Source: a virus. From it: DNA of 64,000 nucleotides. Within the stretch, counting starts at the first letter, position 1. Each line of letters starts with the position of its first letter. The stretch lies in IMG/VR virus record IMGVR_UViG_3300046333_000090; one strand, given 5' to 3'. Both the position numbers and the translations under genes were made by a program. Positions 3,097 through 63,605 of the stretch are shown here, piece by piece. The notes under the pieces were generated by a model. It had not been told where the DNA came from. It saw only the letters and a list, made by a program, of their open reading frames with translations, and did no database searches.

Positions 3097-3123
3097 ACTA
3101 CAATTATTAAATTTAATAATCTT

Positions 3124-3152
3124 AGCCGATCTGATTAGATCGGCTATTTTTT
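3124..3152 (+). terminator. intrinsic terminator AGCCGATCT-loop-AGATCGGCT plus T-run (related copies at ~6837, 8074, 8620, 10035, 10651)
   Basis: GC-rich stem followed by a T tract directly after stop codons. Confidence 0.8.
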
Positions 3153-3447
3153 ATGCCAGATCGATCTCACTCCTCTCTACTGTGCCTAAAATGCCCTATA
3201 AGACGGATCTAACTGATTTTAGGTATATCTCACCTACACCAAAAATACAATGTATAAATTGTAGGTGAAAACAAATGGCTGAGACACAATGTAATCTCTA
3301 AGCCATTATGCCCAATCTCTTGAAATAGCTTGCTATTAGATTCGATTGGTGAGATAGTAAAGAGGTAAGCAACAAATCGAACCATATAAAAAATGACTTG
3401 CCCCCTACGCCGCTCTAACGTTTACTCACTATCTGCAACAATTAATT

Positions 3448-3663
3448 TTGACAATATCGATTATGATCGGGGGAGAATTAGAGTCCAATTGGGTATCATT
3501 TATATATGGGTGGCTAACTCATATCCGACAAAATTATACTATCAACAATGATATTGGATTTATTACTTTTGTTGGTAAAGATTATTATGGTCATATAACT
3601 TATACTCGCACTCGCCGAATTTATTTAAATAGTTCCCGATTGTATATTAAAACGTTAATATAA
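3448..3663 (+). CDS. small hypothetical protein
   Basis: 71-aa ORF downstream of a repeated promoter; start uncertain. Confidence 0.35.
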   Translation: MTISIMIGGELESNWVSFIYGWLTHIRQNYTINNDIGFITFVGKDYYGHITYTRTRRIYLNSSRLYIKTLI

Positions 3664-3782
3664 AACCTATACTATCTATTAATAAACATCTCAGTAGTTA
3701 AGTAATTTGGCTGATGTGTATATATCCTCACATCAGCTACCATCTAATCAGTCAATCTAAACATATACAAAAGGTAAACAAA

Positions 3783-4097
3783 ATGAGTCTTGAAACATTA
3801 AATGATACTTTCGGATTGCCACAAGATGCTACATTAGAAGATATACAAGTATTTTTTAAACAAAATAGTGTGTCTTACCAGATATTTACCCGTCCGCACG
3901 ATAAGAATGGTGATCGGTGCTACATAATAGCAGTATATATGACTACTGGTAAGGTATACGGCTTTAAAACTTATAACACTAGTATTTGTCTATCAATGTT
4001 TAAATTTTGTAATAAACTACCAATACAATTAGAATTATCCCCAGCTAATTTTAAATTTTTAGATAAACATCAAATAGATTTTGTATTTCATTGTTAA
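3783..4097 (+). CDS. hypothetical phage early protein
   Basis: ORF track 3714..4097; the AAGGTAAACAAAATG leader favours ATG 3783. Confidence 0.65.
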   Translation: MSLETLNDTFGLPQDATLEDIQVFFKQNSVSYQIFTRPHDKNGDRCYIIAVYMTTGKVYGFKTYNTSICLSMFKFCNKLPIQLELSPANFKFLDKHQIDFVFHC

Positions 4098-4173
4098 TCT
4101 CAGTCATCTGGCGGATTGAATATACCAAACCCAATCCGCTATCATGTAAACAACAAATAAATAGAGACATAAC

Positions 4174-4437
4174 ATGAAATTAACCGAATATATCAATCCT
4201 TGGATCATATGGTATGCAGATGGCGAAATAATAGAAACGCAACATAACTCACGACCATTAGCTGAGTCTTTTCATAAAATATGTACGGTTTATCCTGGAA
4301 TAAATATGAAGTATTTGCAACATATATTTGATTCGTACGATATAGAAAACTTAGCAGATCCTATCTATGTTGAAAACATTTTTTGCGAAAAATTAGCACT
4401 ATATCACGACGAACTATACCCATACTCAGAGGATTAA
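4174..4437 (+). CDS. hypothetical phage early protein
   Basis: 87-aa ORF with its own hairpin-embedded promoter. Confidence 0.65.
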   Translation: MKLTEYINPWIIWYADGEIIETQHNSRPLAESFHKICTVYPGINMKYLQHIFDSYDIENLADPIYVENIFCEKLALYHDELYPYSED

Positions 4438-5373: not shown

Positions 5374-5574
5374 TTATTAAATTTAATATCTAGATCGATT
5401 ATCCGATCTAGATATCATCTCTATGACCGCTAGAATGCCCCAGAACTGCTCTAATCATCAAACTAGACTCGTACTCGTCTCAATCATTACGACACTGTAT
5501 AAATTGTAGTAGGAAACAAATGGCTTAGACACAACGTAATCTCTAAGCCATTATACTGAATCTCTTAAAATAGC

Positions 5575-6805: not shown

Positions 6806-7112
6806 CACTACAAATTATTAAATTTAATAATACAAAAGCCGTTCTCATCAGATCGGCTTTTTTGGTTTATAGCAGTTCTACTCGATCCTTAACATCATCT
6901 CTAAGGTGCCCAGAATGCCCTATAACGAATCAAACACTCAAACTAGACTCATAATCACCTTACTAATTACGACACTGTATAAATTGTAGTGATACACAAA
7001 TGGCTTAGACCTATCGTAATCAATACGTCATTATGCTTAATCTCTTAAAATAGCTTGCAATTAGATCGCATTAGTGGGATAGTTGAGAGGTAAACAAATA
7101 GCCGCTAATCAA

Positions 7113-8045: not shown

Positions 8046-8280
8046 CCCTACTATCTATTACCTTTAATAACACAGCCGATCTGATTAAGATCGGCTGTTT
8101 TTTTGTTCTTAATTTACGCGATCGTTCTCACTACTCTATTACTATCTTCTCTATTACCGCTATTATGCCATCAGATTACGACATTGTAGTGAGAAACATA
8201 AGCTATTATGCTTAACTTCTGGCAGACTGCTAGATATCTCGTTATAATTTAAGAGTAAACAGATTTCGGAGATACGACTC

Positions 8281-8607
8281 ATGACTACTTCTACTCATTA
8301 TGTATTACTAACTCATTGTCTAGAATATTCCTATAATGACTACGAATCAGATGAATCAGATGAATCATACTACACATACGAATTGATTGTACCACACTCA
8401 TTCGCTGATGTGGTAGAAACTGCTTTAGATTATGGTAATGTAAGCTACAGTTGGAACTGCGAATATAATGATTGCCAACACTATGTTTTAGATGAGACTC
8501 CAGCAGATGACAATGAATGGAAAAAAGTGACAGATCGATTATCGATGATAATGTCTGAATTTTGTATAGATTACCATCATGACCTAATCTGCTACCATAT
8601 TTATTAA
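8281..8607 (+). CDS. hypothetical acidic phage early protein
   Basis: 108-aa ORF with GGAG RBS; promoter and MTTST start are shared with 10308. Confidence 0.7.
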   Translation: MTTSTHYVLLTHCLEYSYNDYESDESDESYYTYELIVPHSFADVVETALDYGNVSYSWNCEYNDCQHYVLDETPADDNEWKKVTDRLSMIMSEFCIDYHHDLICYHIY

Positions 8608-9518
8608 CTTTAATACCACAGCCGATCTTAATCAGATCGGCTGTTTTTTTGTACCTGAATTCACCACAAAATACTACATTATTTGGTAGGCACACTCTAT
8701 TATAACAATTTGTTATAACATCAAATATTAATGAATGTTATAATAAATTGTTATAACATTCATTTTGTAGTATTGTTTGGGTGGATATAGAAATCACTCC
8801 AAACCCATACACAGCACTACATTCAGCCATTTCAAAAACTACAAAAGTGACACCACTTTGACACCACTTTTTGTAAGACTTATGGTAAAATCTACTATAA
8901 CTTCTTACATATTAGGCTACAAATCTACTACACATTATTAAATTTAATAGTCTACTGAGCGATCGTTCTCAATGCTAGGTCAACCCCTTACAAAAAGTCA
9001 TTAAAAGGACTACAAACCTATTGGATACGTCATTATGCACTACTGATTATGTATGTCTATCTTGCTACCTAATGTAATAAAATCCAGATCTGGAGATTGT
9101 AACTCCCAAACACTATACTCTGTAATATGTGTAGCGGTGGTATATACATTATCTAGTCAGTCTTTTGTAGACAAAAAGTCATTAAAAGGACTACAAACCC
9201 ATTGGAGATCGATCGCCACAAATTACAGTTTATTGCAGTATGTGGTATGACTGGAGATCGATCGCTACCACGCCGATCCCTAATATGCTCTGAGAGGTGC
9301 CTAGAATGCCCTCAGACAGTCCAGACAGTCAATCTAGACATATACTCACTTCACTCATTACGACAATGTAGAAATTGTAGTGAGAAACAAATGGCTGAGA
9401 GACAATGTAATCCCTCAGCCATTATGCCTAATATCTTAAAATTGCTTGGAATTGGATCGGGATTAGTGGGATAGTAGAGAGGTAAGCAAACAACAACCGA
9501 TAAGGGAACATAATACAA

Positions 9519-9953: not shown

Positions 9954-10307
9954 TCAGTGGTTAGTTAATGGCGATAAAATATTAGTTTGTAAATTAGCAT
10001 AACACTACAATCTAATTATTAACTTTAATAACACAGCCGATCTAGTGAGATCGGCTGTGTTATTTTGTTTATGCCAGATCGCCCGATCTGCTAATATCCT
10101 CTCTATGGTGTTTAAAAATGCCATACAATCGATCGAACTGCCAAACTAGACATATACTCACTTCACTCATTACGACAATGTATAAACTGTAGGAGTTTTA
10201 AATGGCTGAGATACAGCGTAATCACTAAGCTATTATGCTTAACTTCTGACAAACTGCTAGATATCTCGTTATAATTAAAGAGTAAACAGATTCGAGGTTA
10301 CGACATT

Positions 10308-10625: not shown

Positions 10626-11392
10626 CTACAACTATTAAATTTAATACCTTAGCCGATCTATTAGATCGGCTTTTTTTGTATCAGTCAAACACTATACTCT
10701 GTAATATGTGTAGCTGTGGTATATACATTATCTAGTCAGTCTTTTGTAGGAGAAAAGTCATTAAAAGCACTTCAAACCTATTGGATACGTCAAAGAGTAT
10801 TATTATGCACTACCGATTATGTATGTCTATCTTGCTACCTAATGTAATAAAATCCAGATCGGAGATTGTAACTCCCAAACACTATAGTCTGTAATATATG
10901 TAGCTGTGGTATATACATTATCTAGTCAGTCTTTTGTAGACAAAAAGTCATTAAAAGGACTACAAACCCATTGGAGATCGATCGCTACCTACCTCAGCTT
11001 AGTTACTAACATCCTCTCAAACTGCGCTAGAATGCCCGATCGACAGTGTTTGTAGTGTAGTGGTAGTGAAGTGTAGTTGTTGCCTGTGTTGTCATGTAAT
11101 ATACTACATCAGGAAGGACAAAAAGACAGTGTGTGGTTGTAGTGTAGTGAAGTATGCTGGATATGCCTGACTTTTTTACTCATCGACTTCGCATGATTTA
11201 AAATAGGGGGTAGGGGGTTTCCTATAAGAATTTGACTTCTAAGACAGTGCATTTGACGGATATATTTACCAATCTTTTTAAAATTTTTTTAGAATTTTTT
11301 TTTTTGAAAAGGTCTTTAGATTTGCCAGCTATATTTACAAATCTTTTAAAATTTTTTTTAATAATAAATAAATAAACAAATAAATTTATATT

Positions 11393-12196: not shown

Positions 12197-12338
12197 AAAA
12201 ATTATTAAATTTAATAATGACCTTCTAAAATCAATTAGAAGGTCATTATTTTTATAATTTGGTACTAGTAGTCATTATTTAGATTATCATTCGTTGTAGG
12301 GCATCCTAGAGGGGTCTGAGAGCATAATATAGGTTCCC

Positions 12339-14565: not shown

Positions 14566-14709
14566 ATTTTGGCGAAAGAGATGAATAATAATTGACTAAT
14601 ACTTTAGTAACATTGTCACACATAGATTGTTGTTCTTCTAGCGTCATTCCTTCCATAAGATTATTACACTCTTGAATGTAGGAATTGACATGATTATTAA
14701 ATTTAATAA

Positions 14710-15414: not shown

Positions 15415-15448
15415 AATTAATCCCCTATAACAAAAATGGTGAGAAATG

Positions 15449-17700: not shown

Positions 17701-17868
17701 ACTAACATATATTGGCGCAAAATACCACCACCAAATTCTAAATTATTAAATTTAATAATGACCTTCTAAAAATCAATTAGGAGGTCATTATTTTTATGAT
17801 TTGATGCTAGTGGTCATTATTTCAATTAAGACCTGCTACATGGCATTTTAGACCCCTCCCAGGGCATA

Positions 17869-20800
17869 TTAAACAATAATAGAAACATCAGACTCGATCA
17901 TACAATAATGTTCAGATTCAATTTGCCCATAATAGTACAATTTTGTAGTATAGTTGGTATTAGTTAACCCACTACCAGCATCAATAATTTTTGCTCTAAC
18001 AATACTACCGTTCAAACATTCTAATAAGATCTTAGCAGGGTCAGCAACCCCCTCTACCGCTAACATCATGTAGCGGGGATAATGCAATCCAGCATACACA
18101 ATATCAACGCCAGTCAATTCGCCCCCAACAATATTAAATTTGAATTCAGCGGGGATCACGTCTTTATCATTATTACTATTATATACAATAGAATATACAT
18201 CATCTACTCCAATAGTATCATCAACGATCCAAGCACTCAAATGAGTAATAAAATCAGTAGAATTAACAGTAAGTGTTGTACTAGTAGTAGTATAATTTGC
18301 AGATGGTTGGATAACTCCATTTACAAATAGTATTATGTTTCTATTAGTGGGGTTATTGGTAATGGTATAGATTTTATTGGTAAGGCTGACTAAATTTAAT
18401 GCAGTAAAATTATCACTATAGACCCCATATGCCGTACCAGTAATATTTTGTGTAAAGACAACATTATTACCAACAATACTAAATTCATTATTTGGTACAT
18501 TATTTACAAACATAATCAATTTTGAAACATCTACAGGGACAAAAAGGTTAGTATTTGTGGTGAGTGTGGTAGTATTGGAGTTCGTTAATACTTTTTTGTC
18601 CGTATAAGTTAAAAATGAACTCGGTAGGTTGAGTATAGAGACCCGGTCACTCAAATCATTTATTGTTTGATGAATAGTTACGTTATTGTTAGCCACCGAA
18701 TAATCATAAGATGGATGTTGTGTAACTCCATTGATGTACAAAATTGAATTACTGGCAATCCTACTAACCAAATTATTAAATTTAATAATACTATAGTCAG
18801 TTGCCAATACGGTATTAGAATTAATTTTTTCTAATATCAATCTGTTATGATTTTCTGTCAGCCATACTAGATCTCCGTAATCATAATTGATAAAGGACGA
18901 GTAGTTGCTGTGAACATAATCATTATCATTCCAAATGTAGTCGAAATATTGTTTTTTGAATTTAGTATTTTTGTATAGATCTTCTGGTAATGAATCGATA
19001 TTAATAACGAAATCAGTTTCGTTTTTTTCGGCTAATATACTTAAAATATTCTCGATATTGATCTTATAGTCAATAACATTGTTGATCTGTGTCTCTCTAT
19101 GTAGGTACATCTTCACTATATTATCTATGCTGTATATGCTGTATATCTTATTACCGAGCATATGTACATTATCCACCACAAAATTTTTCCATTCTATTAG
19201 TGAATGTGGGGATTTTATTGAATAAGAATATTGTTGATGAGTAAGGTTGTCTGCGATCACATTATTAGAAGTAATAATACTATCCAAATTATCAGTAAAA
19301 TCTTGAATAGTTTTGTTGCTGGTTGGAGTACAAATTAGTTCTGCTGTACGGACATTATGAATTTTACCAATTTTTCGTCCAGATTCATCCCACAAAAAAT
19401 AATCATTATTCACTACAAATTTTCCAAATAATGATTTCACTTGCAAAGTCGAAGCAATTTTATTATATAAATTAATTTTACCCTTTGCCACATAATTATT
19501 TCTAGTTAATCCATAATAAACAATACTGGTATTGATATCAGATTTGCTTAATATTGGAATGATAGTTGCACCAATACCAATTGATATAGAAACAATAGGA
19601 ATACTTTCAAAATAATTATCACTTTCAATAATGTCAATTCTACTAATAACACTATTAGCAACCACTAAACTAGCAGAAAACTGATTATTTAATACTACAG
19701 AATTTTCAGTATAGCCAATACCATTAGTGATAATTATAAAATCGGTGATGGTATTATTAAATTTAATATCTAAAATCACATCACTATCCACTGAATAATT
19801 TATAGTAGGGTCGCCACCAAACCCATCTCCATTGGTAATATTTTTAATATTTTTAATAGTTCCAATAGTATCACTACGAAATATAATAACTGCACCAACT
19901 CCATATTGTGATAATATAGTATGTGGTGGGATGGATTCTAAATTAATGCCGTTATCAATTATGTTTACTCCAATAATCCCACCAGTATTAGATACTGCTG
20001 AAACGATTATTTTTATATTAACATCTTCAAATTTTATAATATCTCCTACTGCATAATTAATACCAGGAATCTCTATTAGGTAATCATCTATTGCCCCATA
20101 GCTAATATTATCCACCTTTGCCAAATATGGATAAATTTTATTATTTGGTGAAGGGAATTTAACTTCATCATTGTATATTCTGATTGAACCACTAGGAATA
20201 TTGCAATTATTTTGCAATTTCAGATGATTATAGGAATCAAATTTGTATTTGTATTGATTACCGACAAAATAAGGAAATGCGTCGGTTGCAAAATAGCAAT
20301 ATCTACCTTCTGGAAATTCTGGGGTATACGCAAACACCCCATTATACTCATCCAAAACACCACCAATATACTCATAATCTTCAATAAATGTTCCTAATGG
20401 TGCGGTTGGTCTATTAGTAGAAGTAGTAATCTTGAGTGTCCAACTAGAGTATAGTTTATCAACCCCCCCTCTTGGCGCATCTACATATGCTCCATATATA
20501 GGCACACCATCAAATGCCCAACCAATTATGGGAGAATGTACTGTTCTTACTGGTTCAATGTGTACTAATTGTAAATATTGTGGCGAAAAATTAGTATCAG
20601 GTAGATTAGATTCGCCGACCCCACTATCTCCTTGATTATATACATATCCACCAGTACTATCTATAGGGGCATTATTTGCAATATTGTACGTCCAGCTATT
20701 TATAGTCGCAGCAAATACCGCAGAGTTTGGAAAATAATTGACTACCAATGTTGGATTATTGAAGTAGCTAGAACCACCATTTATTACTTCTACAGACACT

Positions 20801-23175: not shown

Positions 23176-23347
23176 TTAATAAATTTGATACTTTTATTCA
23201 TATTCATATTTATAGTTATCATGCGTGTAATTATTAAATTTAATAAATGACCTTCTAAAATCAATTAGAAGGTCATTATTTTTATGATTTGGTACTAGTA
23301 GTGATTATTTAAATTATCGTGCCTTACAGGGCATTCTAGACCCCCCC

Positions 23348-26350: not shown

Positions 26351-27148
26351 TTAGCCTATCATGAATATAGGATATTCCTCCCATTCTGATGACATTTTCG
26401 CCAAAAATGCTTCTTTTTCTCGAACACCGTCGTTGTATAGTGAGTCAGCGTTAAACATCACCCCACTAGGAAGTTGTATATTAGAAAATTTTCTTAGATT
26501 TTGCCCAAATTGTATTTTGACAAGTATTGCGAAATATTCTTTGACGAATCTATCATTATATATCTTCGCAAATTGAACAGGATCGAGTGCGCGTTGACAC
26601 TGAATAATTATAAAACGATCTAACATTGATTCAATATCAAAATCTAGATATAATCTACCATTATTTCTATTAAATTTAATAGCAGTTTCCGCATTCAATA
26701 TATTTATAATGTTTTCAATGCTTTGACGTAGTAGATAAATATCAGTCAGATCTAACATCTGACCACCATAAAAGTTAAACTGTTCCATTATGAAGAATTC
26801 GGGGGATCGACCGAACATGTCATGTAGGTAATTATTATTTGTTCTGGCAACACTAGTAATGCCAATTATATAGTCAGGAACTATTAAAAAGTTTTGATTG
26901 TCAAAGAATGACAATCCACCAGGATTCAATATTTGTGTGTGTGTCTTTTTGTTATCAATATCTTGCTGTGTAATTTTATATTTAAGATACACCTCTTCTG
27001 TGCCGTCATACACACGATCCTGGTATAGTTGGAGTACGTCATCAAGAAGTTGTTCTAACTGGGAATTCTCTACATTTATTTCTATTAGTGGCGCACCTAA
27101 TTTCTTTTTTGCGTAATCAAACAATGCTGTGCGAGAATTTATTGACAT
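26351..27148 (-). CDS. gp13: neck protein gp13
   Basis: LFDYAKKKLGAPLIEINV...YDGTEEVYLKY...QFGQNLRKFSNIQLPSGV...PIFMIG. Confidence 0.92.
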   Translation of the reverse strand: MSINSRTALFDYAKKKLGAPLIEINVENSQLEQLLDDVLQLYQDRVYDGTEEVYLKYKITQQDIDNKKTHTQILNPGGLSFFDNQNFLIVPDYIIGITSVARTNNNYLHDMFGRSPEFFIMEQFNFYGGQMLDLTDIYLLRQSIENIINILNAETAIKFNRNNGRLYLDFDIESMLDRFIIIQCQRALDPVQFAKIYNDRFVKEYFAILVKIQFGQNLRKFSNIQLPSGVMFNADSLYNDGVREKEAFLAKMSSEWEEYPIFMIG

Positions 27149-27176
27149 TTTATTAAATTTAATAATTTTGTGTTAG

Positions 27177-34362: not shown

Positions 34363-34371
34363 GTATAAATA
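34363..34371 (+). promoter_or_regulatory. T4-type late promoter TATAAATA (similar sites precede gp7-like, terL-1, gp14, gp18, the Calx-beta gene, gp6 and gp19)
   Basis: TATAAATA or (C/A)TAAATA lies 15-45 nt upstream of structural gene starts. Confidence 0.75.
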
Positions 34372-34385
34372 TTAAATTTAATAAA

Positions 34386-38978: not shown

Positions 38979-39066
38979 TTTAATATAATAAAGTATATAA
39001 TCATCATAACACAGATATTGATGTATCGCAATCATAAATATCTATAGAATTATTAAATTTAATAGA

Positions 39067-41601: not shown

Positions 41602-43917
41602 TCATACATCAATTATACTGATACTCACTGGGTCAGGAGTAGCTATTAAATAATTATTACCAGAAACCAAAGTAAGAGTAACCGTCTTATTACCTTCTAC
41701 AAAAGCACCAGTAATAGGAGTAATTATTAATTCTGTGGTAAGAATATTATTATTATCAAATGTAATAACTGTGTCAACTAATTCATAATCAATACCATTA
41801 ACCGCAATACCACCTAATATATAATTAACGCTCATAATACTAGTATTACCATCAGTCCTCGTAAAAGTAAATCCAGTGTTATTAGCATTAGCAACCACAC
41901 TAACATCAGTAGGATCAATAATAGTCATAATAAATATGTCTGGTGTAAGTATTTCGTATCCACCTCCAGCAACTAATGTAATAGTAACTGTCTCAGAACC
42001 ATCATTAAGCGCATCAAGAATAGGACGTATAGTTATAAAGGCATATTCAGAACCACGAGTAAATGTGACGGTATTATCCAGTAATTCATAATCAACACCA
42101 TTAACCGCAGTACCACCTAATGTGTAATTAATAGTTAGAGGATTAGTATTGGAACCAGTTCTTTGTAATGTGAACGTCCCAATGAAGTCATCATTTTCCA
42201 CAACAACAGGAAAATTAGCTGCATTCATAATCACACCAGCAAGAGAATCGTTAAGATTAATAGTAACGGGATTAGGAGTAATAACGGTATATTCGCTACT
42301 GCCTAGCACAGTTAATTGAATATTTTCAGTTGGTTCTGCTACGTTATCAATAGTAGGATCAATTATTAATTCAGCAGTGGCAGAACCAGCAGCAATTATG
42401 ACAGAAGAATTAATTACTGTATAATCAACCCCATCAGTAGCAGTACCACCTAATGTGTAATTAATAGTTAAAGGATTAGTAGTGGAACCACTTCTTGTGA
42501 ATGTATATGTAGCATTTACTACTTCATTTTCAACAATGCTCGTAGTACTAGCAACAGTGGTGATTTCAGGAAGTGCAGTAGTACTATCTAAAATATTAAT
42601 ACTTACCGGATCGGGAGTAATAGACACATATCCACTACCATCGACTAATGTAATAGAAACGGTTTCCGTTGCTTCGCTGTCTGCATCCACAATAGGAACG
42701 ATTACCAAAGTAGAAGTAGCAGAATTGGCACCAAAAATAATAGAATTACCTACCGCAACATAATCTGCACTAGTGGTAGCAGTACCACCCAATATATAAT
42801 TAACCGTCAATGGATTAGTAATATCGCCATTTCTTGTAAATGTATATACGGAATTGGTGTTTCCATCTTCAGTGATATTAGTATTAGTCGCAAATAAACT
42901 AACATCAACGGGAATAGTATTACTTAATAAATTAATAATTACCGGATTAATACTAATAGAAATATATCCGCTACCATTTATTAAATTTAATGATATTGTT
43001 TCTGTTTCCTCTTCAACATTATCAACAATAGGATTGATTACTAGTGTGGTGGTAGAAGAATTGGTAGCAAATATAGCTGAGGTACTAATTAATTCATAAT
43101 CAACACCATTAACCGCAGTACCACCTAATGTGTAATTAATAGTTAGAGGATTAGCAGTGGAACCACTTCTTGTGAATGTATATGTAGCATTTAATACTTC
43201 ATTTTCAACAATAGTTGCCGTAGATGCAGTAACACTAACCTGAATATTACTTACCAACTCAAAATTAATAATATTTACAACAACTGGATTAACAGTATTT
43301 TTAATATATTCTGTATCATCAAGTAATTCTACAGAAATCGTTTCTGTAAATTCTACAATATTATCAGAAGTAGGATCGATTATCAGGGTGGCAGTATCAG
43401 ATCCCGCAGGTATTATAATATTATCAGGTAATAACGCATAATCAAAACCATTAGTACAAGAACCGCTTAATATATAATTTACCACCAAGTCATAATTGTT
43501 ATACCCAGTTCTAGTAAATGTATATACTAGATTGGTAGCACTATTTTCATCAGCAGTAGAAATAGTGGCAGATACACTGACCCCGACATCTTTAATTATA
43601 TTTACTATAATTGGGGTAATAGTATCTACAGCATAATCAGCACTATCCACTAATGTTAAAGAAATAGCCTCATACAATTGAGTAAGATTAGTTGTGCGAG
43701 GATTAATAGTTAATGTAGTAGTATTAGATCCGGCGGGGATGACGATGGGAATTTTGGCAGAAATCGCACCAACATTATTACTATCAGTAAATCTATAAAA
43801 AATAGTCAATGGATTGTCTGTACTACCAGTTCTAATAAATGTAAATTCGATATAATGTATAGTATTTACCGAATTATAAACTCTAACTCTAGTATCATCA
43901 GAAATTAATATTGGCAT
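41602..43917 (-). CDS. tandem Calx-beta-like repeat protein (about 7 repeats of ~110 aa), late gene
   Basis: Repeats of YTFTR.G...PLTINY.LGGTA..G.DY...P..D...E.TET; TATAAATA upstream. Confidence 0.8.
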   Translation of the reverse strand: MPILISDDTRVRVYNSVNTIHYIEFTFIRTGSTDNPLTIFYRFTDSNNVGAISAKIPIVIPAGSNTTTLTINPRTTNLTQLYEAISLTLVDSADYAVDTITPIIVNIIKDVGVSVSATISTADENSATNLVYTFTRTGYNNYDLVVNYILSGSCTNGFDYALLPDNIIIPAGSDTATLIIDPTSDNIVEFTETISVELLDDTEYIKNTVNPVVVNIINFELVSNIQVSVTASTATIVENEVLNATYTFTRSGSTANPLTINYTLGGTAVNGVDYELISTSAIFATNSSTTTLVINPIVDNVEEETETISLNLINGSGYISISINPVIINLLSNTIPVDVSLFATNTNITEDGNTNSVYTFTRNGDITNPLTVNYILGGTATTSADYVAVGNSIIFGANSATSTLVIVPIVDADSEATETVSITLVDGSGYVSITPDPVSINILDSTTALPEITTVASTTSIVENEVVNATYTFTRSGSTTNPLTINYTLGGTATDGVDYTVINSSVIIAAGSATAELIIDPTIDNVAEPTENIQLTVLGSSEYTVITPNPVTINLNDSLAGVIMNAANFPVVVENDDFIGTFTLQRTGSNTNPLTINYTLGGTAVNGVDYELLDNTVTFTRGSEYAFITIRPILDALNDGSETVTITLVAGGGYEILTPDIFIMTIIDPTDVSVVANANNTGFTFTRTDGNTSIMSVNYILGGIAVNGIDYELVDTVITFDNNNILTTELIITPITGAFVEGNKTVTLTLVSGNNYLIATPDPVSISIIDV

Positions 43918-43952
43918 AAAATTATTAAATTTAATATTTATATTTAGTTCAG

Positions 43953-45984: not shown

Positions 45985-46201
45985 TGTAACCCCAAATATT
46001 GGTATTAATATTTATAAAAAAACTCCCCATTATTAACAGGGAGTTATTAAATTTAATAATTATATTCTTCCAAAGTTTGTCTAGCTGCATCTTCTGCGGT
46101 TAACCCATTATTAATTAAATACCTGCGGCGCGATACTAGTTTACAAATCATTTGCTTATCGTTTTTTATACTAAAAATCAGTGTTTTTAATTTGGTGTCC
46201 A

Positions 46202-46922: not shown

Positions 46923-49409
46923 CTAGAACAGCAAATCTTCTAGTGTATTGGATTCAGTTAATTCCCATCCTACAACATTTAGAACGCCCTCTAGGGGAGT
47001 TAAGAAACATTTCTCTAGCATTAAGTCGTGATCCACATACTGCTCTAACCCCATTTCTGGCGGTATGCTGCCAAAAAAGGCAATAATATTCTCGTGGATG
47101 GGATTGGGCATCTTTAGATATACCGTTTTAATTTTATCACCATTTTTGATTAATTGATATTTTTTTTCCAAATTATTAACAAGAATATATCCATTATATA
47201 CAATTGCAGACCTTGCACCAATAGGTGTCCCTTTTATGTATCCATTACTATACGGATCCGTATACTTGTTCACATCAGACACTCCACGCGCAACACCAAT
47301 TTCGGCAGAAGTTAGCTTTTTGCTATCAGACCGTACCCGATCTACATATTCAATCAATTCTGAATTATTAGAATTGATGATAACAGAATATGCAGAGTTC
47401 AACTTATCTCGAAAACACTTAGGAGTAGACGAACGTACTACTTCTAATCCAACTACCTTTAATTTTGGTTCTTTGTAGCGCACCCCTTCTGCATCATAAA
47501 CATTAGATATGTATCGTTTTTTACCAGTAATCAAGAATTTACTAGAAATCGTGTCCCGAACCATCGTAAGACACTGCTTATACACATGCAAATATTCTCC
47601 CAGTTCGTCATATATTTCTGATATCTTTGGACTGATAATAGCTTGACAATATTCGTCCAAATAATCAACTATTTGCTCATTATTCATACCTTCACATTTA
47701 GCCAATACTAAATCGTTAAAATCAATAAACATAGAATCTGTATCGTTAGCAATAATACGGTCTTTACTCTTGCCTACTAGTTCAGAAATAAATATGTTAA
47801 TTCTGTCACTCGCGCAACGAATAGCGACTTGTCCAGTATGCGTAATTGAAGTAGCGTTTGCTAAGTTATAATACCTGAAATATGGCGATCCTAGAACACC
47901 ATAAGCACTATTCATGGCAATTTTTTTGGCAAGCTGTATGTTATTGTAGGTAGATATATCTATCGCTAATTGCTCGGTAGGATTAATTTGATATTCCTTT
48001 TCTGCTTCTTTTTGTAATTTTTTATAATGTTTTCGTTCACTATAGTACTTTGACATTAGTTGAGATAACATACCTTCACTAGTACGATCATACAACGTAC
48101 CAGAAGGAGAAATACAATAATCGGTGTATCGAGAGAAGTCTAAACTTTCATTCAATACCTTTTCTATTGTTATTTGTGGGTCAAATCCTCGTATAGTCTC
48201 TGGGGAGATATTAAGCAGTTGGATAATGTGAGGATACAGAGATGCCAAATCGAATGACACAACCCAACTATACATACCAGGGTTAGGTTCTTTGACAAAT
48301 GCACCATCAAATTTGTCATCTTTGGTATTATAAGCTTTAGAAGGAACTACTATATTTCTTTCTTTGAGGTAATTATAGATAATATTATCCCAGCAACATA
48401 CTTGAGAATATACATCAGAGAAATTAATTTTGGCATCATATGATACTACTAATGCTAAGTCTAGTAGACCCATCTTTTCTTCTAATCGCCGGAGTAATCG
48501 TACATCTTGTAAATTATAAGAAGTAAATTTGAAAATGTTTTCAGTGTAGAATGAAATCCAACTACCATACTCGCTATGATCTAACTTTTCTGCCCCCAAT
48601 TCCACATTAGCAATATGATCCAATGAATAACTTTCTTGATTCTTATATGTAAACTTTTTGTAAAGCTGCATATAATCTAAGTGAGATACCCCTACGATCT
48701 CATACACAGTATATTCATTACCAAAATCATAATCCTTTTTAGTATGAATCCTACCCCAAGGTGACAACTTCTTGCTATATGATTCACCCAAGACTAGATT
48801 GATTCGATTAATTATATAGGGAATATCAAATTTTATACCATTCCAACTAGAAAGAACATCTGGATAATTATCTTTCCAATAATTAAGAAACCCAATCAGC
48901 ATATCAGGTTCAGTGCTATATTGGTGATACACCGTATCTACTTCTTCTAAAGTTATATCTGCAATACCATACACATTGTATATCTTTGTATATGAATCGT
49001 ATAAAGTAAGACAAATTATACTCTCTTGTGGATCGTTTACATTGGGAAATCCATATTCGCTGGTAGTTTCGATATCCAAATAGAACTTCCTGACCAGTTC
49101 ATTATTAAATTTAATAATTTCTGGAAACTTTTCTGATAACCATATATAGTTAAATTTCTCATAACCATACACTTTGAAATCAGTTACATACTCGTACTCC
49201 TTAATAAAATCCTTTGCTTCTTTGACGGTATTGAAGGATTTTGGTGATACAAATTCGCCAGATAAAGTTTTATAATCAGTGGGAGTATTTGATTTTAGAT
49301 ATAAAGATGGGGAAATTGGTTCTTTGAATTGAACCCTTTTCCCATCCTGATACCCAATATAATATATAATATTTCCGAAAAGTTTGCAGCTAACATACTG
49401 TGCAGACAT
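46923..49409 (-). CDS. gp43: family B DNA polymerase gp43
   Basis: Exo I LDIETTS; region II SFDLASLYPHII; region III KIAMNSAYG; region I NDTDS; KKRY; 828 aa, uninterrupted. Confidence 0.97.
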   Translation of the reverse strand: MSAQYVSCKLFGNIIYYIGYQDGKRVQFKEPISPSLYLKSNTPTDYKTLSGEFVSPKSFNTVKEAKDFIKEYEYVTDFKVYGYEKFNYIWLSEKFPEIIKFNNELVRKFYLDIETTSEYGFPNVNDPQESIICLTLYDSYTKIYNVYGIADITLEEVDTVYHQYSTEPDMLIGFLNYWKDNYPDVLSSWNGIKFDIPYIINRINLVLGESYSKKLSPWGRIHTKKDYDFGNEYTVYEIVGVSHLDYMQLYKKFTYKNQESYSLDHIANVELGAEKLDHSEYGSWISFYTENIFKFTSYNLQDVRLLRRLEEKMGLLDLALVVSYDAKINFSDVYSQVCCWDNIIYNYLKERNIVVPSKAYNTKDDKFDGAFVKEPNPGMYSWVVSFDLASLYPHIIQLLNISPETIRGFDPQITIEKVLNESLDFSRYTDYCISPSGTLYDRTSEGMLSQLMSKYYSERKHYKKLQKEAEKEYQINPTEQLAIDISTYNNIQLAKKIAMNSAYGVLGSPYFRYYNLANATSITHTGQVAIRCASDRINIFISELVGKSKDRIIANDTDSMFIDFNDLVLAKCEGMNNEQIVDYLDEYCQAIISPKISEIYDELGEYLHVYKQCLTMVRDTISSKFLITGKKRYISNVYDAEGVRYKEPKLKVVGLEVVRSSTPKCFRDKLNSAYSVIINSNNSELIEYVDRVRSDSKKLTSAEIGVARGVSDVNKYTDPYSNGYIKGTPIGARSAIVYNGYILVNNLEKKYQLIKNGDKIKTVYLKMPNPIHENIIAFFGSIPPEMGLEQYVDHDLMLEKCFLTPLEGVLNVVGWELTESNTLEDLLF

Positions 49410-50042: not shown

Positions 50043-51083
50043 TTAAATATGTTTCCAAGTACGTCTTTCTACCATATCCGAAACAGTTTTTCTATCCAAA
50101 CTATAACGTCTAGATAATTCTCCTTTACTTACTCCTTCACTCCATAATCTTCTTATTTCTAATACTTGTTCGTCAGATACTTTACTATTCTTGTGCGAAC
50201 TTCCAACCATTGTACGAGATTTGATGACAACACCTGGGAATATTTTACGCTCCACATGTTTAAAGCATTCTCGTCTCAATATTCTCCCTACTTGTACTTG
50301 ACTGATTTGGAATTTCTCACCAATTTCTTTTTGTGTCCATTTATGTATATCATACAATTCTACAATATGGAGAATATCTTCTTCACTTAAATCAGAATTA
50401 GTTCGGAATTTCTCGGCTTTATCATTATTATTGTCTATTCTGGAACCTTCAAATAAATTATCTGGGTGAACATTTAATTTATTATCATCTTTATGACATA
50501 AACATATATCTGAAGTTAATACTACCTTTGTTAGTTGATATATGATTCTATGTATTTTATGAGATGATGGTTTTCCATTTTTACATAAAGTGATTTTAGG
50601 ATAGCCATTAGTGGTACTATACTTACACAACCAAGTATTTTCATCTATTACATCTATCTTACCTTCCAATTTTTCGATCATATCTTGCAAATATATATCA
50701 CTCAATCCTAATTTATTTACAATTGGCACACCAAAAATATTAAAATTAATATCTAATTCAATATATGCACGAACTACTCGCACAATATTATATTTATCAA
50801 TTAATCGATTTATTGTAGATGGCGAACTATTAAGTAATTTAGCTGCTTCTGATTGATGCCAATTACATTCTTCCAATGCTTCCATCAACTGTTCTCGACT
50901 AATGCTGCTGAATTTAGGTTTTTGTAGAAATATTAGTTCCTTTTTATTAATCCCCAATCGTTTAATGTGAAGATGAATACCAGTTACACTGTATCCTAAT
51001 TGTTTAGCTATATCAGAACCACTATGTACAGTTTTAGCAATATCAAGCAATTCTTTTTTCGTTAAAGTTATTTTATTAGCCAT
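50043..51083 (-). CDS. HNH homing endonuclease with multiple HTH domains
   Basis: GYPKI...HKIHRIIY...LCHKDDNKLNVHPDNLFEGSRIDNNND; RTWKHI tail; sits right after the IntN of terL piece 2. Confidence 0.85.
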   Translation of the reverse strand: MANKITLTKKELLDIAKTVHSGSDIAKQLGYSVTGIHLHIKRLGINKKELIFLQKPKFSSISREQLMEALEECNWHQSEAAKLLNSSPSTINRLIDKYNIVRVVRAYIELDINFNIFGVPIVNKLGLSDIYLQDMIEKLEGKIDVIDENTWLCKYSTTNGYPKITLCKNGKPSSHKIHRIIYQLTKVVLTSDICLCHKDDNKLNVHPDNLFEGSRIDNNNDKAEKFRTNSDLSEEDILHIVELYDIHKWTQKEIGEKFQISQVQVGRILRRECFKHVERKIFPGVVIKSRTMVGSSHKNSKVSDEQVLEIRRLWSEGVSKGELSRRYSLDRKTVSDMVERRTWKHI

Positions 51084-53535: not shown

Positions 53536-53700
53536 TTTATTAAATTTAATAATTCTATACTGATATTTATTGGTGTGTTTTTAATTATTAAATTTAATAA
53601 TGACCTCCTAAAATCAATTAGGAGGTCATTATTTTATGATTTGATACTAGTAGTCATATTTGTGATTTTTATGCTCTGAGAGGGGCATCCTAGACCCCTC

Positions 53701-54399: not shown

Positions 54400-54401
54400 T
54401 T

Positions 54402-56530: not shown

Positions 56531-56830
56531 ATGCAAAAAAAACAGGTTTATATTATCTTTAATGAATTATTAAATTTAATAAAAATAGGAGTCACCAACA
56601 ACATTCCTCGCAGACTAAGGCAACTTGAGTGCAGTTCTGGATGCAAACTAGAACTATACTATCATACTGAACCGATATATAACGCAACCAAAATAGAAAA
56701 GTCACTGCATCAGTATTTTAATTTAAAACGAAAAGAAGGCGAGTACTTTTTTATAAGCGCAGAAGAAGCAAAAGAAAAATTGTTATTTATGATATCTAAC
56801 TTGACTAAAGTATATACAGACAATTTATAA
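56531..56830 (+). CDS. GIY-YIG / T5orf172-like protein
   Basis: VYII......IKIGVT.NIPRRLRQL...IEKSLHQYF...EGEYF. Confidence 0.8.
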   Translation: MQKKQVYIIFNELLNLIKIGVTNNIPRRLRQLECSSGCKLELYYHTEPIYNATKIEKSLHQYFNLKRKEGEYFFISAEEAKEKLLFMISNLTKVYTDNL

Positions 56831-58842: not shown

Positions 58843-58968
58843 TTTAAATTATTAAATTTAATAAAATGCCCTCAACTATGAGGGCATTTTATTGTATTAG
58901 ATGCTAGTAGTCATTATTCTAGTTATCATGCGTTGAGGGGCATTCTACACCCCTCTCAGCGCATAATA

Positions 58969-59172
58969 TTAGATATCAGGAAAATTTAAGTGTGCAAATT
59001 GTTTATGATGTATTTTCGCAGCATCATCATAAGCTTTAGCTGCTTCAATTTCAGTTTTAAACCTTCCTAATCGGTACTTGGTCTTATTTGCAATTATTGT
59101 TGCCATCCAGGTATTATTACGAGAATCTAAATAGTATCGAATAATATAGACATTTAAGTCTTTACTACTCAT
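58969..59172 (-). pseudogene. AP2-domain relic of an endonuclease gene disrupted by IS607
   Basis: WMATI......RLGRFKTEIEAAKAYDDAAK....FAHLNFP; an HTH N-terminal relic (MSNPNST...KDLGIS) lies on the other side at 61130-60972. Confidence 0.7.
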
Positions 59173-60389: not shown

Positions 60390-60945
60390 CAGAATTAATA
60401 ATATTTACAATTTGACAAGATTTTCTAGTTCTTCTACGAATAGAATATAGTCTAGCACAGAAAGAAGTAATAATGCTAACAAAATCTTGCATAAGATCAT
60501 CAGTACGTTCGGTACAAATATTAACCACATCAATAGATTTGCCTTGTTTAGATAGTAGAACATCTAGATAATTAAACCCAACTCTAGTAAGGCGATCTTT
60601 ATGTTCTACAACTATGATATCATAGTTATCAGAATTAAGCAAGTCAATAAATTTACGTCTATGGTCATTAACGCCAGAACCAACTTCTTTAATAATTTTA
60701 ACAATAGAATAACCTTTTGATAAACAATAGGATTCTAAGCGTTCCACTTGAGTGTCCAGATTAGATTTATTTTGAGAAGAAGAGACTCTGGTATATATAA
60801 CTGCATTTTTAGTAGGAGTGGTAGGTGGATGAACAATAATAGTACCAGTAGGGAGTTGGGTGGCGGATAGAGTGCCAGATTTCCACATACGCCAAGCAGT
60901 TTTGTAGGAAATACCAAGAGAAGAGGCGTAAGTAGATAACTTCAT
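60367..60945 (-). CDS. tnpA: IS607 serine transposase TnpA
   Basis: N-terminal HTH (GISYKTAWRMW), YTRVSS catalytic motif, EVGSG, EHKDRLTR. Confidence 0.95.
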   Translation of the reverse strand: MKLSTYASSLGISYKTAWRMWKSGTLSATQLPTGTIIVHPPTTPTKNAVIYTRVSSSQNKSNLDTQVERLESYCLSKGYSIVKIIKEVGSGVNDHRRKFIDLLNSDNYDIIVVEHKDRLTRVGFNYLDVLLSKQGKSIDVVNICTERTDDLMQDFVSIITSFCARLYSIRRRTRKSCQIVNIINSDETNSTT

Positions 60946-61249
60946 ATGTGACTATATATAACCATGTTTGTCTATATATTTAGCAAAGTTAACCAATACA
61001 TTAGTCTACTGACTGAAGTATTACTAATTCCCAAATCTTTAGCAGTCAAAGATTGATCGTAATTATTATCATTTAATGATTTGATAAATTCTTCTTTAGT
61101 TATATTTGCTGTAGAATTTGGATTTGACATGATGATTTATTTAACTTTTTACATATTTTAATTATATCACATTTAAACTATTGAGTCAAGCATACTACGA
61201 AATTACTAAATATTAATATAACAAAATATAATAATTTTTTAAAAAACAT

Positions 61250-61900
61250 ATGGCATTAAATATAATGGACTTTCGGACACAATTACTACTTGGTGGCTTT
61301 AGAAGCAACTTGTTCAGAGTAGATCTGTCCTTCCCCTCCCAAATTGATTCATTAAAAGGAAATACTGGGGATAAACCAGCATCAGCAGCAACATTAAATA
61401 CAGCAGCTAGTTTTTTGATTAAATCAGCACAAATACCTAGTATGGACATTGGAGTAATTCCTGTTCCATTTAGAGGAAGAGAATTAAAAGTAGCTGGTGA
61501 CAGAAGTTTTGAGAATTTTTCCTGTACTGTAATTAATGATGGTGAATTTAGATTACGCAAAGGATTTGAGGCATGGTCTAGAGGCATCAATGCGTTGACA
61601 GAAAACGTATCAGAATTAGGATATTCTAATGGATCGGGTACAAACAAAATTAGTTATATTCAAGATATTACATTACATTTATTGAGTAGAGATAATGTTG
61701 CTCCAGAGAGAACACCAGCAAATGCTAGTTCATTTAGTTCTGCTACTGATAAGATTTTGAGAAGTTATCGGTTATACGGTGCATGGGTATCCAGTTTATC
61801 TGGAATGGATCTTGGTTACGAACTCAATAACCAAATTTCGCAGTACAGTGTGACTTTTGCGTACCAGTACTTCGAGGTACTACCAAGTACTACAAATTAA
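61250..61900 (+). CDS. gp19: tail tube protein gp19
   Basis: GGFRSNLFRV...VPFRGRELKVAGDRSFE.F..TVIND..F.LR..FE.W. Confidence 0.95.
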   Translation: MALNIMDFRTQLLLGGFRSNLFRVDLSFPSQIDSLKGNTGDKPASAATLNTAASFLIKSAQIPSMDIGVIPVPFRGRELKVAGDRSFENFSCTVINDGEFRLRKGFEAWSRGINALTENVSELGYSNGSGTNKISYIQDITLHLLSRDNVAPERTPANASSFSSATDKILRSYRLYGAWVSSLSGMDLGYELNNQISQYSVTFAYQYFEVLPSTTN

Positions 61901-62014
61901 TTATTAAATTTAATAAAGCCTTTCTAGATGACTCTAGAAAGGCTTATTTTTATATTCTGACACTAGTAGTCATTATTATAGTTTTCGTGCGTTGTGAGGC
62001 ATCCTAGACCTCTC

Positions 62015-62726
62015 TCAGAGCAGAATAGGTTTACCCCATGTTGCTTGATTCTCTAGATGTGCTTCAATTAATTGATCTAATTTTGTTTGATGTTCTGCTG
62101 TGAATACAATATTAGGATCTGGCAACCAATTAGGTACTTCTTGTAAGTATCTTTCTGGGGGACACTAAACCTGATTTGGTTGCAAATTGGTAATGAATAT
62201 TTTGAAGGTAATTGAGATTTTTAGAACCAAAACTTATACTTTTTCCATTTACTTTTGGCATCCTGATTTGTGTCACATAGCTACCAACATAATTAGTATA
62301 TTGTAACCCAATAAATAAACCAGAAAACTTTTTCTTTATTGTTGTGTTGAACCATTGAGTCAATAGTTCTAGATTGGAACGTATATTATTACTAGCATTA
62401 CTATCTAAATGATTAATTACATAATTTTCATTAGTCTTCGCTCCAAATACTAGTTGATGAATATATGTATTAGCACTATCAGTTCTTGTCTTAAATCTAC
62501 CACTACTATCAAGATTAAAATTATATTGTTTTAGAATATCTACTTTATCAAGATCTATAGAATTAGTATATATTGTACCAGATTTAATATTGAGTAGATG
62601 TAATTTGTCATGTAAAAATAATTGATTATATATTAATTTGTAATTACCATTATTTACATTATGGTGAGGAAGATCGAACTGCCATAATTTTAGTAATGAA
62701 TCAAAGTGAATCATATTACTACTCAT
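62015..62726 (-). pseudogene. HNH family copy 8, frameshifted at a C-run (~62160)
   Basis: INHLDSNASNNIRSNL; the paralog tail ERYLQEVPNW...WGKPILL continues in another frame. Confidence 0.8.
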
Positions 62727-62741
62727 AAAAATTTATTAAAT

Positions 62742-63605
62742 TTAATAAAGTACTTCAACTAACTCGTTAATACCCAAACCAGAGACTTTACACGGTTTTG
62801 TTCCTATAGAAGAACCTCGATCATTATACACTCCAACAATTGTATCAAACTGAGCATTGACATGGTAGTGCCCAAAGTAATATTTCTCTGGATTGATGCG
62901 ATTGAATATACCATTAAGATATACCGCATCTTTATCTAAATCTTCTTTTAAAGTAGGATCGTTTTTATATCGTTGGTCTAAGCAACTTAATTTTAAATAG
63001 GGATAGAATAGCATCGGCGCAGAATGACTGACAACGATATCAAAGTAATTGGCATTTATGAGATTATCTAATATTTTATCAGCATCATTATAAGGAGATA
63101 CTTTAGTTATTTTTTGTGCGCCGTGGCGAGAACAAACTGATAAATGGCGTATATATTCGTCTTCCCACCACGACACATTTTTTTCTCTGTCTACTCGATC
63201 AATAGAAGTTGCACCACCAACAGTCAATAGTTTTTTACATACAGAACCCCCTTTCCAATTAATAACCGAATAGTCTGGTAAAAATTTAATATTGGATAAA
63301 GGTCGATCATATTCCTTTGTACCAATATGAGGTTCATGATTATAATATTGCGAACCCAACTCAGGATAATGGTTATAGTAATTGTCGTGGTTGCCACGAT
63401 TAATTAGTAAAGTAACATCATTACACCTCAAATAATAATCGAGTTTGGATAATTGTTCTTGAGTGAATCCGTAACCAAAATCGCCGACTTGGATAATTGT
63501 GCAGCCTTGTAAATCAAATCTAGTGATGTAGCTGTAGATGACGGCAAGTTCGCCGTGGATGTCGCTTAAAATGAATAGCCGTCCGTTTGTATAAAATTCT
63601 TGCAT
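62742..63605 (-). CDS. calcineurin-like metallophosphoesterase
   Basis: SDIHG, GDFG, RGNHD, SHSAP, FGHYH. Confidence 0.92.
   Translation of the reverse strand: MQEFYTNGRLFILSDIHGELAVIYSYITRFDLQGCTIIQVGDFGYGFTQEQLSKLDYYLRCNDVTLLINRGNHDNYYNHYPELGSQYYNHEPHIGTKEYDRPLSNIKFLPDYSVINWKGGSVCKKLLTVGGATSIDRVDREKNVSWWEDEYIRHLSVCSRHGAQKITKVSPYNDADKILDNLINANYFDIVVSHSAPMLFYPYLKLSCLDQRYKNDPTLKEDLDKDAVYLNGIFNRINPEKYYFGHYHVNAQFDTIVGVYNDRGSSIGTKPCKVSGLGINELVEVLY

Follow-up and report, generated by a model that had tools for sequence, protein, structure and literature searches.

A dense and evenly spaced palindrome in a T4-like phage genome as a candidate loading site of a ParB/KorB-type protein

Introduction

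Clamp proteins of the ParB family are known from chromosome and plasmid partition, from nucleoid occlusion and from the control of genes on plasmids or integrative and conjugative elements. In ParB-parS systems a dimeric ParB-family protein recognises a 16-bp palindrome through its helix-turn-helix (HTH) domain, and the linear prophage N15 carries dispersed SopB centromere palindromes. The binding sites of Noc, NBS, have the sequence ATTTCCCGGGAAAT, which is unrelated to the palindrome described below; the centres of parS and NBS are G/C-rich. In phages, ParB-family proteins are widespread and almost uncharacterised (PMC12704722). Here we describe the 14-bp palindrome TATTAAATTTAATA, which is iterated at even distances through 64,000 nucleotides (nt) of DNA from a T4-type phage (IMG/VR record IMGVR_UViG_3300046333_000090; this whole stretch is called the window), together with P0121, a ParB-like protein encoded upstream of the window that we consider a candidate reader of the site.

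KorB of plasmid RK2 is a ParB-family CTP clamp and, with KorA, a long-range silencer; it loads at palindromic OB operators and slides up to 1.5 kb from them (PMC11790492). The phage array resembles this system in that a short perfect palindrome is dispersed over a mobile genome, near promoters as well as far away from them, and the sliding range of KorB is on the scale of the spacing of the phage sites. Other properties are different. The carrier is a lytic T4-like phage, the sites are far denser, even and in many cases located in coding sequence, homologues of ParA/IncC and KorA were not seen, and the ParB-like gene is followed by a gene for a protein of about 70 amino acids (aa) without known family. 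The sequence of the site is unrelated as well: the phage core consists of A and T only and bears no resemblance to canonical parS, NBS or OB sites, OB (TTTAGCGGCTAAA) having a G/C-rich centre (PMC11790492).

Noc of Bacillus subtilis and Staphylococcus aureus, an orphan ParB paralogue, likewise has no ParA partner, and its sites are perfect palindromes of 14–16 bp at many dispersed positions including the inside of genes. However, Noc acts on a bacterial chromosome and requires an N-terminal membrane helix, and NBS avoid the terminus and are not evenly spaced. With ParB-parS and N15 the phage array would share the reading of a palindrome by an HTH, and with N15 also the scattering of palindromes in a phage genome. 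Those systems have few sites and a ParA partner and serve partition, in N15 that of a plasmid prophage, whereas the ParA-binding motif is absent here and phages of the present type are, to our knowledge, strictly lytic.

Iterated palindromes under selection, some of them in coding sequence and with a role at the level of the chromosome, are also found in bacteria: HIP1 of cyanobacteria (GCGATCGC) is 8 bp long, far more frequent and of unknown function, and the matS and SlmA sites of Escherichia coli are regional and read by unrelated proteins. A link to HIP1 was rejected, as the window contains no copy of it. The L5 stoperators of Cluster A mycobacteriophages resemble the phage array in that more than 20 copies of one 13–14-bp site, about one per 2 kb, are read by one phage protein. 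They are bound by a monomer, serve lysogenic silencing and are asymmetric, orientation-dependent and intergenic (PMC9283540), whereas the site described here is a perfect palindrome. PeSLs of T4-type phages are composite modules of stem-loop and promoter between small early genes (PMC2839356, PMC4122927). The early-region copies of the palindrome also lie in repeated AT-rich/stem-loop/promoter modules, but PeSLs have a degenerate consensus and are confined to intergenic hyperplastic regions, whereas the exact palindrome also occurs in late-gene leaders and, with 8 copies, inside genes. We found neither the 14-mer in the literature nor any description of a lytic T4-like phage that combines a ParB/KorB/Noc-type protein with a dense and even array of sites, some of them intragenic, and regard this combination as new.

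The palindrome is an exact word with even spacing

The window contains 27 exact copies of the 14-mer between position 3105 (first copy) and 62747 (last copy), whereas 0.02 are expected from dinucleotide shuffles. A preliminary description of this DNA had noted at least 27 exact cores and variants at 8056, 8602, 10017 and 42979; all were recovered at their positions, the variant at 8056 with two mismatches and the other three with one. The relaxed pattern TATTAA-NN-TTAATA occurs 31 times (0.14 expected) and copies with one mismatch 6 times (0.4 expected). Numbers of copies with two or three mismatches are near chance, and the motif is therefore an exact word rather than a fuzzy consensus. Our catalogue comprises 34 sites: the 27 exact copies, the 6 one-mismatch copies and one copy with two mismatches.

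In five of the six one-mismatch copies the mismatch falls on the central positions 7–9 (binomial P ~0.002), as expected for two half-sites read by a dimer. The flanks prolong the dyad to 16–20 bp, with AAT-core-ATT as consensus: T is found at position -1 in 22 of 27 copies and A at +1 in 18 of 27, and the next two flank positions are A/T. The 16-mer TTATTAAATTTAATAA occurs 17 times and the 18-mer ATTATTAAATTTAATAAT 9 times, and one copy, as reported before, extends to a perfect palindrome of 26 bp (31845-31870). Perfect palindromes of 13–16 bp with two half-sites are also what distinguishes sites of the parS/NBS/OB type. In its build the element is thus a pair of half-sites of the kind that a symmetric dimer reads.

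Exact copies follow each other at a mean distance of 2293 bp. The coefficient of variation of the spacing is 0.48, compared with 0.95 for random placement, and none of 20,000 simulations was as even (P<1e-4), which bears out the earlier suggestion that the spacing is under selection. The largest gap between exact copies is 4872 bp, and 3928 bp when one-mismatch copies are included.

Copies inside genes are conserved and turn over

Eight of the 27 exact copies are located inside open reading frames (ORFs), at the places named in the preliminary description, and read IKFN (6 copies) or LNLI (2 copies). Two are found in the gp7-like baseplate gene (17869-23175, minus strand), at 18774..18787 (IIKFNN, full 18-mer) and 19755..19768 (IKFN), and one in the gp13-like gene (26351-27148, minus strand) at 26668..26681 (IKFN). 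The DUF4815/VrlC-like gene (28278-34313, minus strand) contains two, 29783..29796 (IIKFNN) and the 26-bp palindrome 31845..31870 (LNLI). A gene for 567 aa (36131-37834, minus strand) carries one at 36865..36878 (IKFN) and the family B DNA polymerase gene another at 49103..49116 (IIKFNN). The eighth, at 56568..56581, belongs to an ORF of 99 aa (56531-56830) that lies upstream of the tail sheath gene and is doubtful. In three of these copies the whole 18-mer is present, as IIKFNN. One-mismatch copies were found in the VrlC-like gene (29534..29547, central position 8), in a gene for a Calx-beta structural protein (42979..42992, position 14; gene 41602-43917), where the copy falls within the largest gap between exact copies, and in a multi-HTH gene (50738..50751, central position 8; gene 50043-51083). 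The earlier labels of the gp7-like, gp13-like, DUF4815/VrlC-like and DNA polymerase genes were upheld.

Codon nulls were calculated for 17 genes with 33.5 kb of coding sequence, holding 7 of the 8 intragenic copies. Shuffling of the codon order yielded 0.017 copies; shuffling of synonymous codons, by which the proteins are kept, yielded 0.69 copies with a maximum of 4 in 300 runs. Both nulls fail to account for the 7 copies seen, as had been anticipated for selection on the DNA site itself.

We assessed the conservation of these sites in relatives. In L140, whose VrlC-like protein is 77% identical, two exact sites and the one-mismatch site of this gene are identical and use the same codons, in a gene in which only 3.9% of all 14-mers are identical to the window. 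In L114 (DNA polymerase 86% identical) the site in the polymerase gene occupies the same codons without any change, whereas its flanks differ; here 16% of the 14-mers of the gene are identical. All four alignable intragenic sites are thus conserved in every letter, which has a probability of about 1e-5 if sites are treated as independent. L141, a 52% relative, encodes other residues at two site positions (KITFKD, KVTLCN), the site at 29783 being absent, and keeps the one at 31845 with one mismatch. A new exact copy is present where the window reads GIQFTP. The sites therefore turn over. Within a lineage they are kept, between lineages they are replaced, and the protein sequence is bent to accommodate them.

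No step in the identity between the window and L140 was found at the intragenic sites, which are therefore not visible recombination joints; the suggestion that the palindrome acts as a recombination site gained no support there. The eight copies inside genes also argue against the possibility that all copies are terminator tails or promoter parts.

P0121 is a member of the ParB/Noc/KorB family

The gene of P0121 encodes 409 aa and terminates 956 nt upstream of window base 1. Contig L135, in which position 1945 corresponds to window base 1, holds the 3’ part of the gene, ending at 989. The protein matches the PHROG family “ParB-like partition protein” (E 2e-21) and aligns with Spo0J of Helicobacter pylori across the N-domain and the HTH. 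It contains the GxxRxxA motif as GHRRQKA at residue 90 (GERRLRA in Spo0J), and G90, R92, R93 and A96 vary little or not at all among the 70 homologues retrieved by an exhaustive search. Among these 70, Pfam recognises HTH_ParB in 62, ParB_N in 34 and KorB in 31. The family profile has its best match with Noc (1e-29) and also matches KorB (1e-22), with ParB in the same range. In the AlphaFold2 model residues 20-220 have a pLDDT >90. Top Foldseek matches are 6SDK, 7BM8, 7NFU and 8QA9 (E ~1e-8), representing ParB-CDP, Noc and KorB, and the KorB structure 8QA9 superposes best (TM 0.62). We conclude that P0121 is a ParB/Noc/KorB-family protein with a ParB N-terminal (ParB/Srx) fold followed by a ParB-type HTH. 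Past an acidic disordered linker the model predicts with confidence a small helix-strand-strand-helix domain (residues 368-406), a candidate for the C-terminal dimerisation domain.

A ParA-binding motif of the LG[KR]GL type is absent from P0121-P0125, and a scan of window ORFs revealed none that resembles ParA. As far as these sequences indicate, P0121 would not belong to a ParABS system. In four lineages the ParB-like gene is followed by a gene for a ~70-aa protein without known family (L132:677-943, ~1.2 kb upstream of window base 1; L263:1708-1923; L265:2246-2461; L262:3167-3370). These proteins are 41–57% identical and have invariant YDP, GF-GW and AP motifs. By analogy with KorA and KorB, the small protein may be a partner of the P0121 clamp.

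Among cultured phages only one weak match to the ParB-like protein was found, and ParB_N was not found in two related viral records (fragments). We also considered P0121 as a helper of the 5mYOX type. The phage ParBs that activate thymine dioxygenases have no HTH domain (bioRxiv 10.1101/2025.08.14.668559), unlike P0121.

Motif and protein in relatives

The contigs fetched with a close P0121 homologue (L263, L262 and L265) all carry the motif or a near variant; in L263, 3.6 kb contain two copies, of which one is exact and the other has one mismatch. A search in related phages, as proposed earlier, was successful for the closer relatives L140 and L114, which contain the motif at window-like density. 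In ~120 kb of other T4-like contigs no exact copy occurs. A more distant phage, found in sample 3300037882, likewise has this word as its leading 14-bp palindrome, but much more rarely than the window. No iterated palindrome was found at a distant ParB-like locus (L264, 23% identical). A one-mismatch copy at 134..147 (position 9) lies ~1.1 kb downstream of the ParB-like gene of the present phage, and in L265 the identical variant, flanks included, is located behind the ParB-like gene. The link between protein and site rests on co-occurrence in four lineages.

Two metagenome scans (VrlC-like, gp6-like) and a scan of viral contigs with gp6 revealed no further relatives. Matches to the 16-mer in viral contigs and to the 18-mer in 185,579 prokaryote genomes were, among the matches listed, nearly all single per locus and in unrelated AT-rich sequence; at least three viral loci listed have two copies of the 16-mer. 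The search for the motif in hosts and other viruses gave no sign of an enriched host or other virus among these matches.

A proposed role as loading sites of a clamp

By comparison with parS, OB and NBS, the palindrome could be the loading site of P0121, spanning the whole genome; we rate this assignment at about an even chance. It would give a name to the dimeric phage DNA-binding protein that the preliminary description had proposed: a gene of a suitable family is present upstream, and its binding to the site and a role in organising, protecting or silencing the genome are what we infer from the likeness to known systems. A P0121 dimer would bind both half-sites with its HTH domains; after that it would probably form a closed clamp, dependent on nucleotide, and slide 1–2 kb each way from the site. 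With a site every ~2.3 kb the whole phage chromosome would come within reach of clamps, and long genes without intergenic space would carry sites inside their coding sequence. Such a reach of every base would explain why the spacing and not the position relative to genes is conserved, and likewise why long genes have internal sites. The purpose is likely a genome-wide marking, organisation or silencing of phage DNA and not a partition of the plasmid type, which is unlikely for a T4-like phage that is lytic and has no ParA. The even coverage fits a role in organising the whole genome or in marking the unmodified phage DNA as self. By analogy, occlusion as by KorB would fit the copies on late promoters, and copies overlapping or directly following late promoters could in addition act as KorB-like operators. 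None of the alternatives discussed below explains the even spacing, the exact dyad and the intragenic conservation with turnover all together; each covers a subset.

A more far-reaching proposal, on which we are tentative and lean towards doubt, is that an orphan ParB/KorB-type clamp loaded at 60–80 even sites coats the whole chromosome of a strictly lytic T4-like phage. Possible uses of the coat include self-marking, the gathering of replicating genomes into one body and a genome-wide switch for the timing of transcription, and the conserved ~70-aa protein may be a partner in it. If true, chromosome coating would mean that the ParB switch has been put to a new use, and the maintenance of a loading site every 2–3 kb despite the constraint on essential proteins would indicate that whole-genome clamp coverage is highly valuable to the virus. 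The phage would further provide a natural system for the sliding range of clamps and their effects on transcription and replication, and for how a phage tells its own DNA from that of the host without base modification. The site is in any case a compact lineage marker and offers ~30 natural binding-site contexts for biochemistry.

Several observations weigh against P0121 as the reader. The protein scores 21.4 bits for Pfam HTH_ParB, under the cut-off of 22.6 (which its homologue P0123 passes), and has no Pfam ParB_N match. The Glu-Asn of the ENxxR box of Spo0J aligns with Ser-Ser, so that CTP hydrolysis may differ in P0121. Beside the ParB-like gene of this phage only one-mismatch copies are located, and the intergenic version of the motif in the relative from sample 3300037882 is asymmetric (TATCRRATTTAATA). 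Moreover, 14 of the 34 sites abut terminator hairpins and several are part of repeated non-coding cassettes, contexts that could point to a role in transcription or in a mobile cassette. The link between P0121 and the site is circumstantial, and with most of the genome of at least 157 kb lying beyond the sequence read, other DNA-binding proteins are possible readers.

Other possible readers of the site

A different dimeric or tandem-HTH protein might read the palindrome as a dispersed operator or roadblock and thereby silence or time transcription in the manner of stoperators, which we consider rather unlikely. It could be a host factor, a phage regulator not yet seen or the 346-aa multi-HTH protein (gene 50043-51083). 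In this last candidate at least four HTH units were recognised but no nuclease domain was detected, and most ORFs of the early region are without known family. Several copies lie between a late promoter and an ATG or overlap the late promoter sequence TATAAATA, and ~1 site per 2 kb is also the density of L5 stoperators. Stoperators, however, are asymmetric, orientation-dependent and intergenic (PMC9283540), whereas the sites described here are perfect palindromes, a third of them intragenic. No host genome with several copies of the 18-mer in one locus was among the matches listed, and a ParB-family protein is a better fit to palindromes of this size. DNA-binding parts of homing endonucleases usually read long asymmetric targets, and it is such a part (phrog_59) that the multi-HTH protein resembles.

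Contexts of the intergenic copies

A hairpin with a T-run on the plus strand follows 13 sites at a distance of 0–6 nt, and the mirror arrangement is found at one. In the early region the order of stop codon, ACTACAAT, motif, terminator and next small gene recurs as a module, and 10 early-region copies fit this pattern. The exact copy at 3105..3118 is located 8 nt past the stop of ORF 2533-3096 and abuts the plus-strand terminator 3123-3146; the copy at 5375..5388 directly follows the stop of ORF 4534-5373, with a hairpin immediately after; 6816..6829, 10 nt past the stop of ORF 6398-6805, is followed by hairpin and T-run; and 10633..10646, 7 nt past the stop of ORF 10308-10625, abuts terminator 10651-10671. 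The variants 8056..8069 (two mismatches, central positions 6-7), 8602..8615 and 10017..10030 (one mismatch each, central position 7) abut the terminators 8072-8098, 8618-8644 and 10027-10064, respectively. The exact copy at 8936..8949 is intergenic without an adjoining hairpin.

Six copies head a non-coding cassette of ~145 bp (12190-12345, 17731-17885, 23219-23375, 53573-53730, 58837-58990 and 61889-62116) with the order palindrome, terminator hairpin, conserved spacer and G/C-rich long hairpin; the second hairpin at 53675-53715 has a perfect 15-bp stem. These copies are situated at the convergence of plus- and minus-strand genes (12203..12216), between the gp7-like stop and the start of a NUMOD3 endonuclease gene (17744..17757), upstream of the gp7-like start (23232..23245), downstream of the HNH gene 53701-54399 (53586..53599), 7 nt past the tail sheath stop (58850..58863) and 1 nt past the tail tube stop (61902..61915). 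Near the copy at 23232, the sequence has a late promoter ATAAATA at position 23207 and a degenerate copy at 23177, 1 nt from the ATG. Parts of the cassette also occur past the 3’ ends of HNH genes. Neither motif nor cassette has a match in Rfam.

These arrangements raise the possibility that mobile or recombinogenic non-coding cassettes, namely PeSL-like modules, flanks of homing genes or units similar to miniature inverted-repeat transposable elements, have spread the motif and that its copies serve as crossover points where modules are shuffled. The early modules of stop codon, ACTACAAT, motif, terminator and promoter indeed resemble T4-type PeSLs (PMC2839356, PMC4122927), six copies head cassettes, the window encodes at least seven HNH/NUMOD3 proteins, two TnpB and an IS607-type TnpA, and indels occur beside sites between L114 and the window. 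We nevertheless regard this explanation as unlikely. Eight copies are intragenic and seven intergenic ones stand in unrelated flanks; reading frames are kept and insertions are lacking, and these copies cannot come from the spread of a cassette. The level of identity to L140 does not change at intragenic sites, the 14 bp stay exact where the cassette flanks diverge, and even spacing is not expected from spread. The simplest reading of the contexts is an A/T-only word fitted into the scarce non-coding bases of a compact genome and otherwise into genes.

In five cases 2 nt separate the palindrome from an ATG, in leaders of ~20 nt without Shine-Dalgarno sequence. Such copies precede the genes of the gp13-like protein (27151..27164, with an exact copy at the same place in L140), gp8 (34370..34383, with a one-mismatch copy here in L140), gp6 (39051..39064, in the divergent gap to an HNH gene starting at 39035) and a terminase piece (53538..53551, gene 51124-53535). 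A late promoter (T)ATAAATA is located 10–12 nt upstream of the copies at gp8, gp6 and the terminase piece; ATAAATA precedes the gp6 copy by 11 nt and the terminase copy by 12 nt. Three copies overlap a T4-type late promoter. At gp8 the first two bases of the motif together with the preceding TATAAA form TATAAATA, and the copy at 43923..43936, 5 nt before the ATG of gene 41602-43917, is overlapped by the same sequence. Other late genes have equally AT-rich leaders without Shine-Dalgarno sequence in which the motif is missing; the motif is therefore not the promoter and not needed for translation. An identity with the late promoter was rejected also because TATAAATA occurs separately upstream of late genes, and a sigma-70 promoter composed of ACTACAAT and the motif because the -35/-10 spacing is inconsistent.

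A signal in RNA or transcription, be it an AU-rich leader or translation element, an RNase site, a terminator part or a promoter element, would be suggested by the five copies just before an ATG in leaders behind late promoters and by the 13 copies directly 5’ of plus-strand terminator hairpins, the last bases of which can lengthen the stem. It is very unlikely in our view. An RNA signal requires neither a perfect DNA dyad nor exactness, the contexts are inconsistent (5’ and 3’ untranslated regions, both sides of terminators, coding sequence), intragenic copies are conserved in relatives, and the late leaders, the separate late promoter and the lack of an Rfam match described above argue in the same direction. 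Hardly any weight can be given to the idea that a phage enzyme, for instance an HNH protein, cuts or nicks the DNA at the palindrome and that the resulting ends prime recombination-dependent replication or load the late-transcription clamp. HNH-family genes are numerous and even spacing would suit genome-wide entry points, but with a palindromic target every 2.3 kb the phage would break up its own genome, homing endonucleases normally have no targets in their own genome, and no evidence ties an HNH gene to the motif.

The remaining copies are exact. One directly follows the stop of the HNH_3 endonuclease gene 14710-15456 (minus strand) at 14695..14708. Another, 46045..46058, lies just upstream of a minus-strand terminator; in the corresponding intergenic region of L114 an exact copy is kept and the arrangement is different. 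The last, 62734..62747, precedes the ATG of the HNH gene 62130-62726 by 7 nt and overlaps the stop codon (62742-62744) with which a phosphoesterase gene (62742-63605, minus strand) ends.

Gene content of the window

Its large ORFs identify the window as part of a T4-type myovirus related to cyanophages. It encodes the baseplate proteins gp6, gp7-like, gp8 and gp25, tail sheath and tail tube, gp13/14/15-like proteins, the small terminase and the family B DNA polymerase, and has a G+C content of 31–34%. A near-identical cultured phage was not found at the DNA level; the closest cultured DNA polymerases, from Synechococcus T4-like phages, are 46% identical. Proteins identical to those of the window are encoded on metagenome contigs of several JGI and SRA samples, one of them ~157 kb long.

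The large terminase is split into pieces with intein and LAGLIDADG matches, at 51124-53535 (minus strand) and 54811-56034 (plus strand). The first piece is the N-terminal ATPase and carries the intein/LAGLIDADG matches, the nuclease half is the divergent ORF, and two genes, one of them HNH, lie between them. The number of homing-endonuclease-like genes (HNH_3/NUMOD3) is unusually high, with at least seven in the window (13526-14275, 14710-15456, 16930-17700, 38250-39035, 53701-54399, 62130-62726 and, for the multi-HTH protein, 50043-51083). A gene for a Dam-family N6-adenine methylase (15449-15949) overlaps the start of the HNH_3 gene 14710-15456 by 8 nt. Two genes for TnpB (IS605 OrfB/Cas12f-like) are located at 27-1163 and within 59169-60945. 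The second adjoins a TnpA of the IS607 serine-recombinase type and forms an insertion that parts the tail sheath gene from the tail tube gene; at its position the relative L125 has a minus-strand ORF of 363 aa, the 3’ end of which is 80% identical to the window.

Early genes seem to begin ~7–9 nt past a TAnnnT box (TCTCTA..GT; 3150-3210, 5400-5460, 6860-6925, 8100-8165 and 10070-10125) and start with ATGCC(C/A), encoding M-P-Y/Q/S, without Shine-Dalgarno sequence. Box and starts suggest near-leaderless early mRNAs and a common 5’ gene module. In L125, a 66% relative, a tandem array of the 11-bp unit GGCATTTTAGA is located at 6758-6813, upstream of a terminase-like gene.

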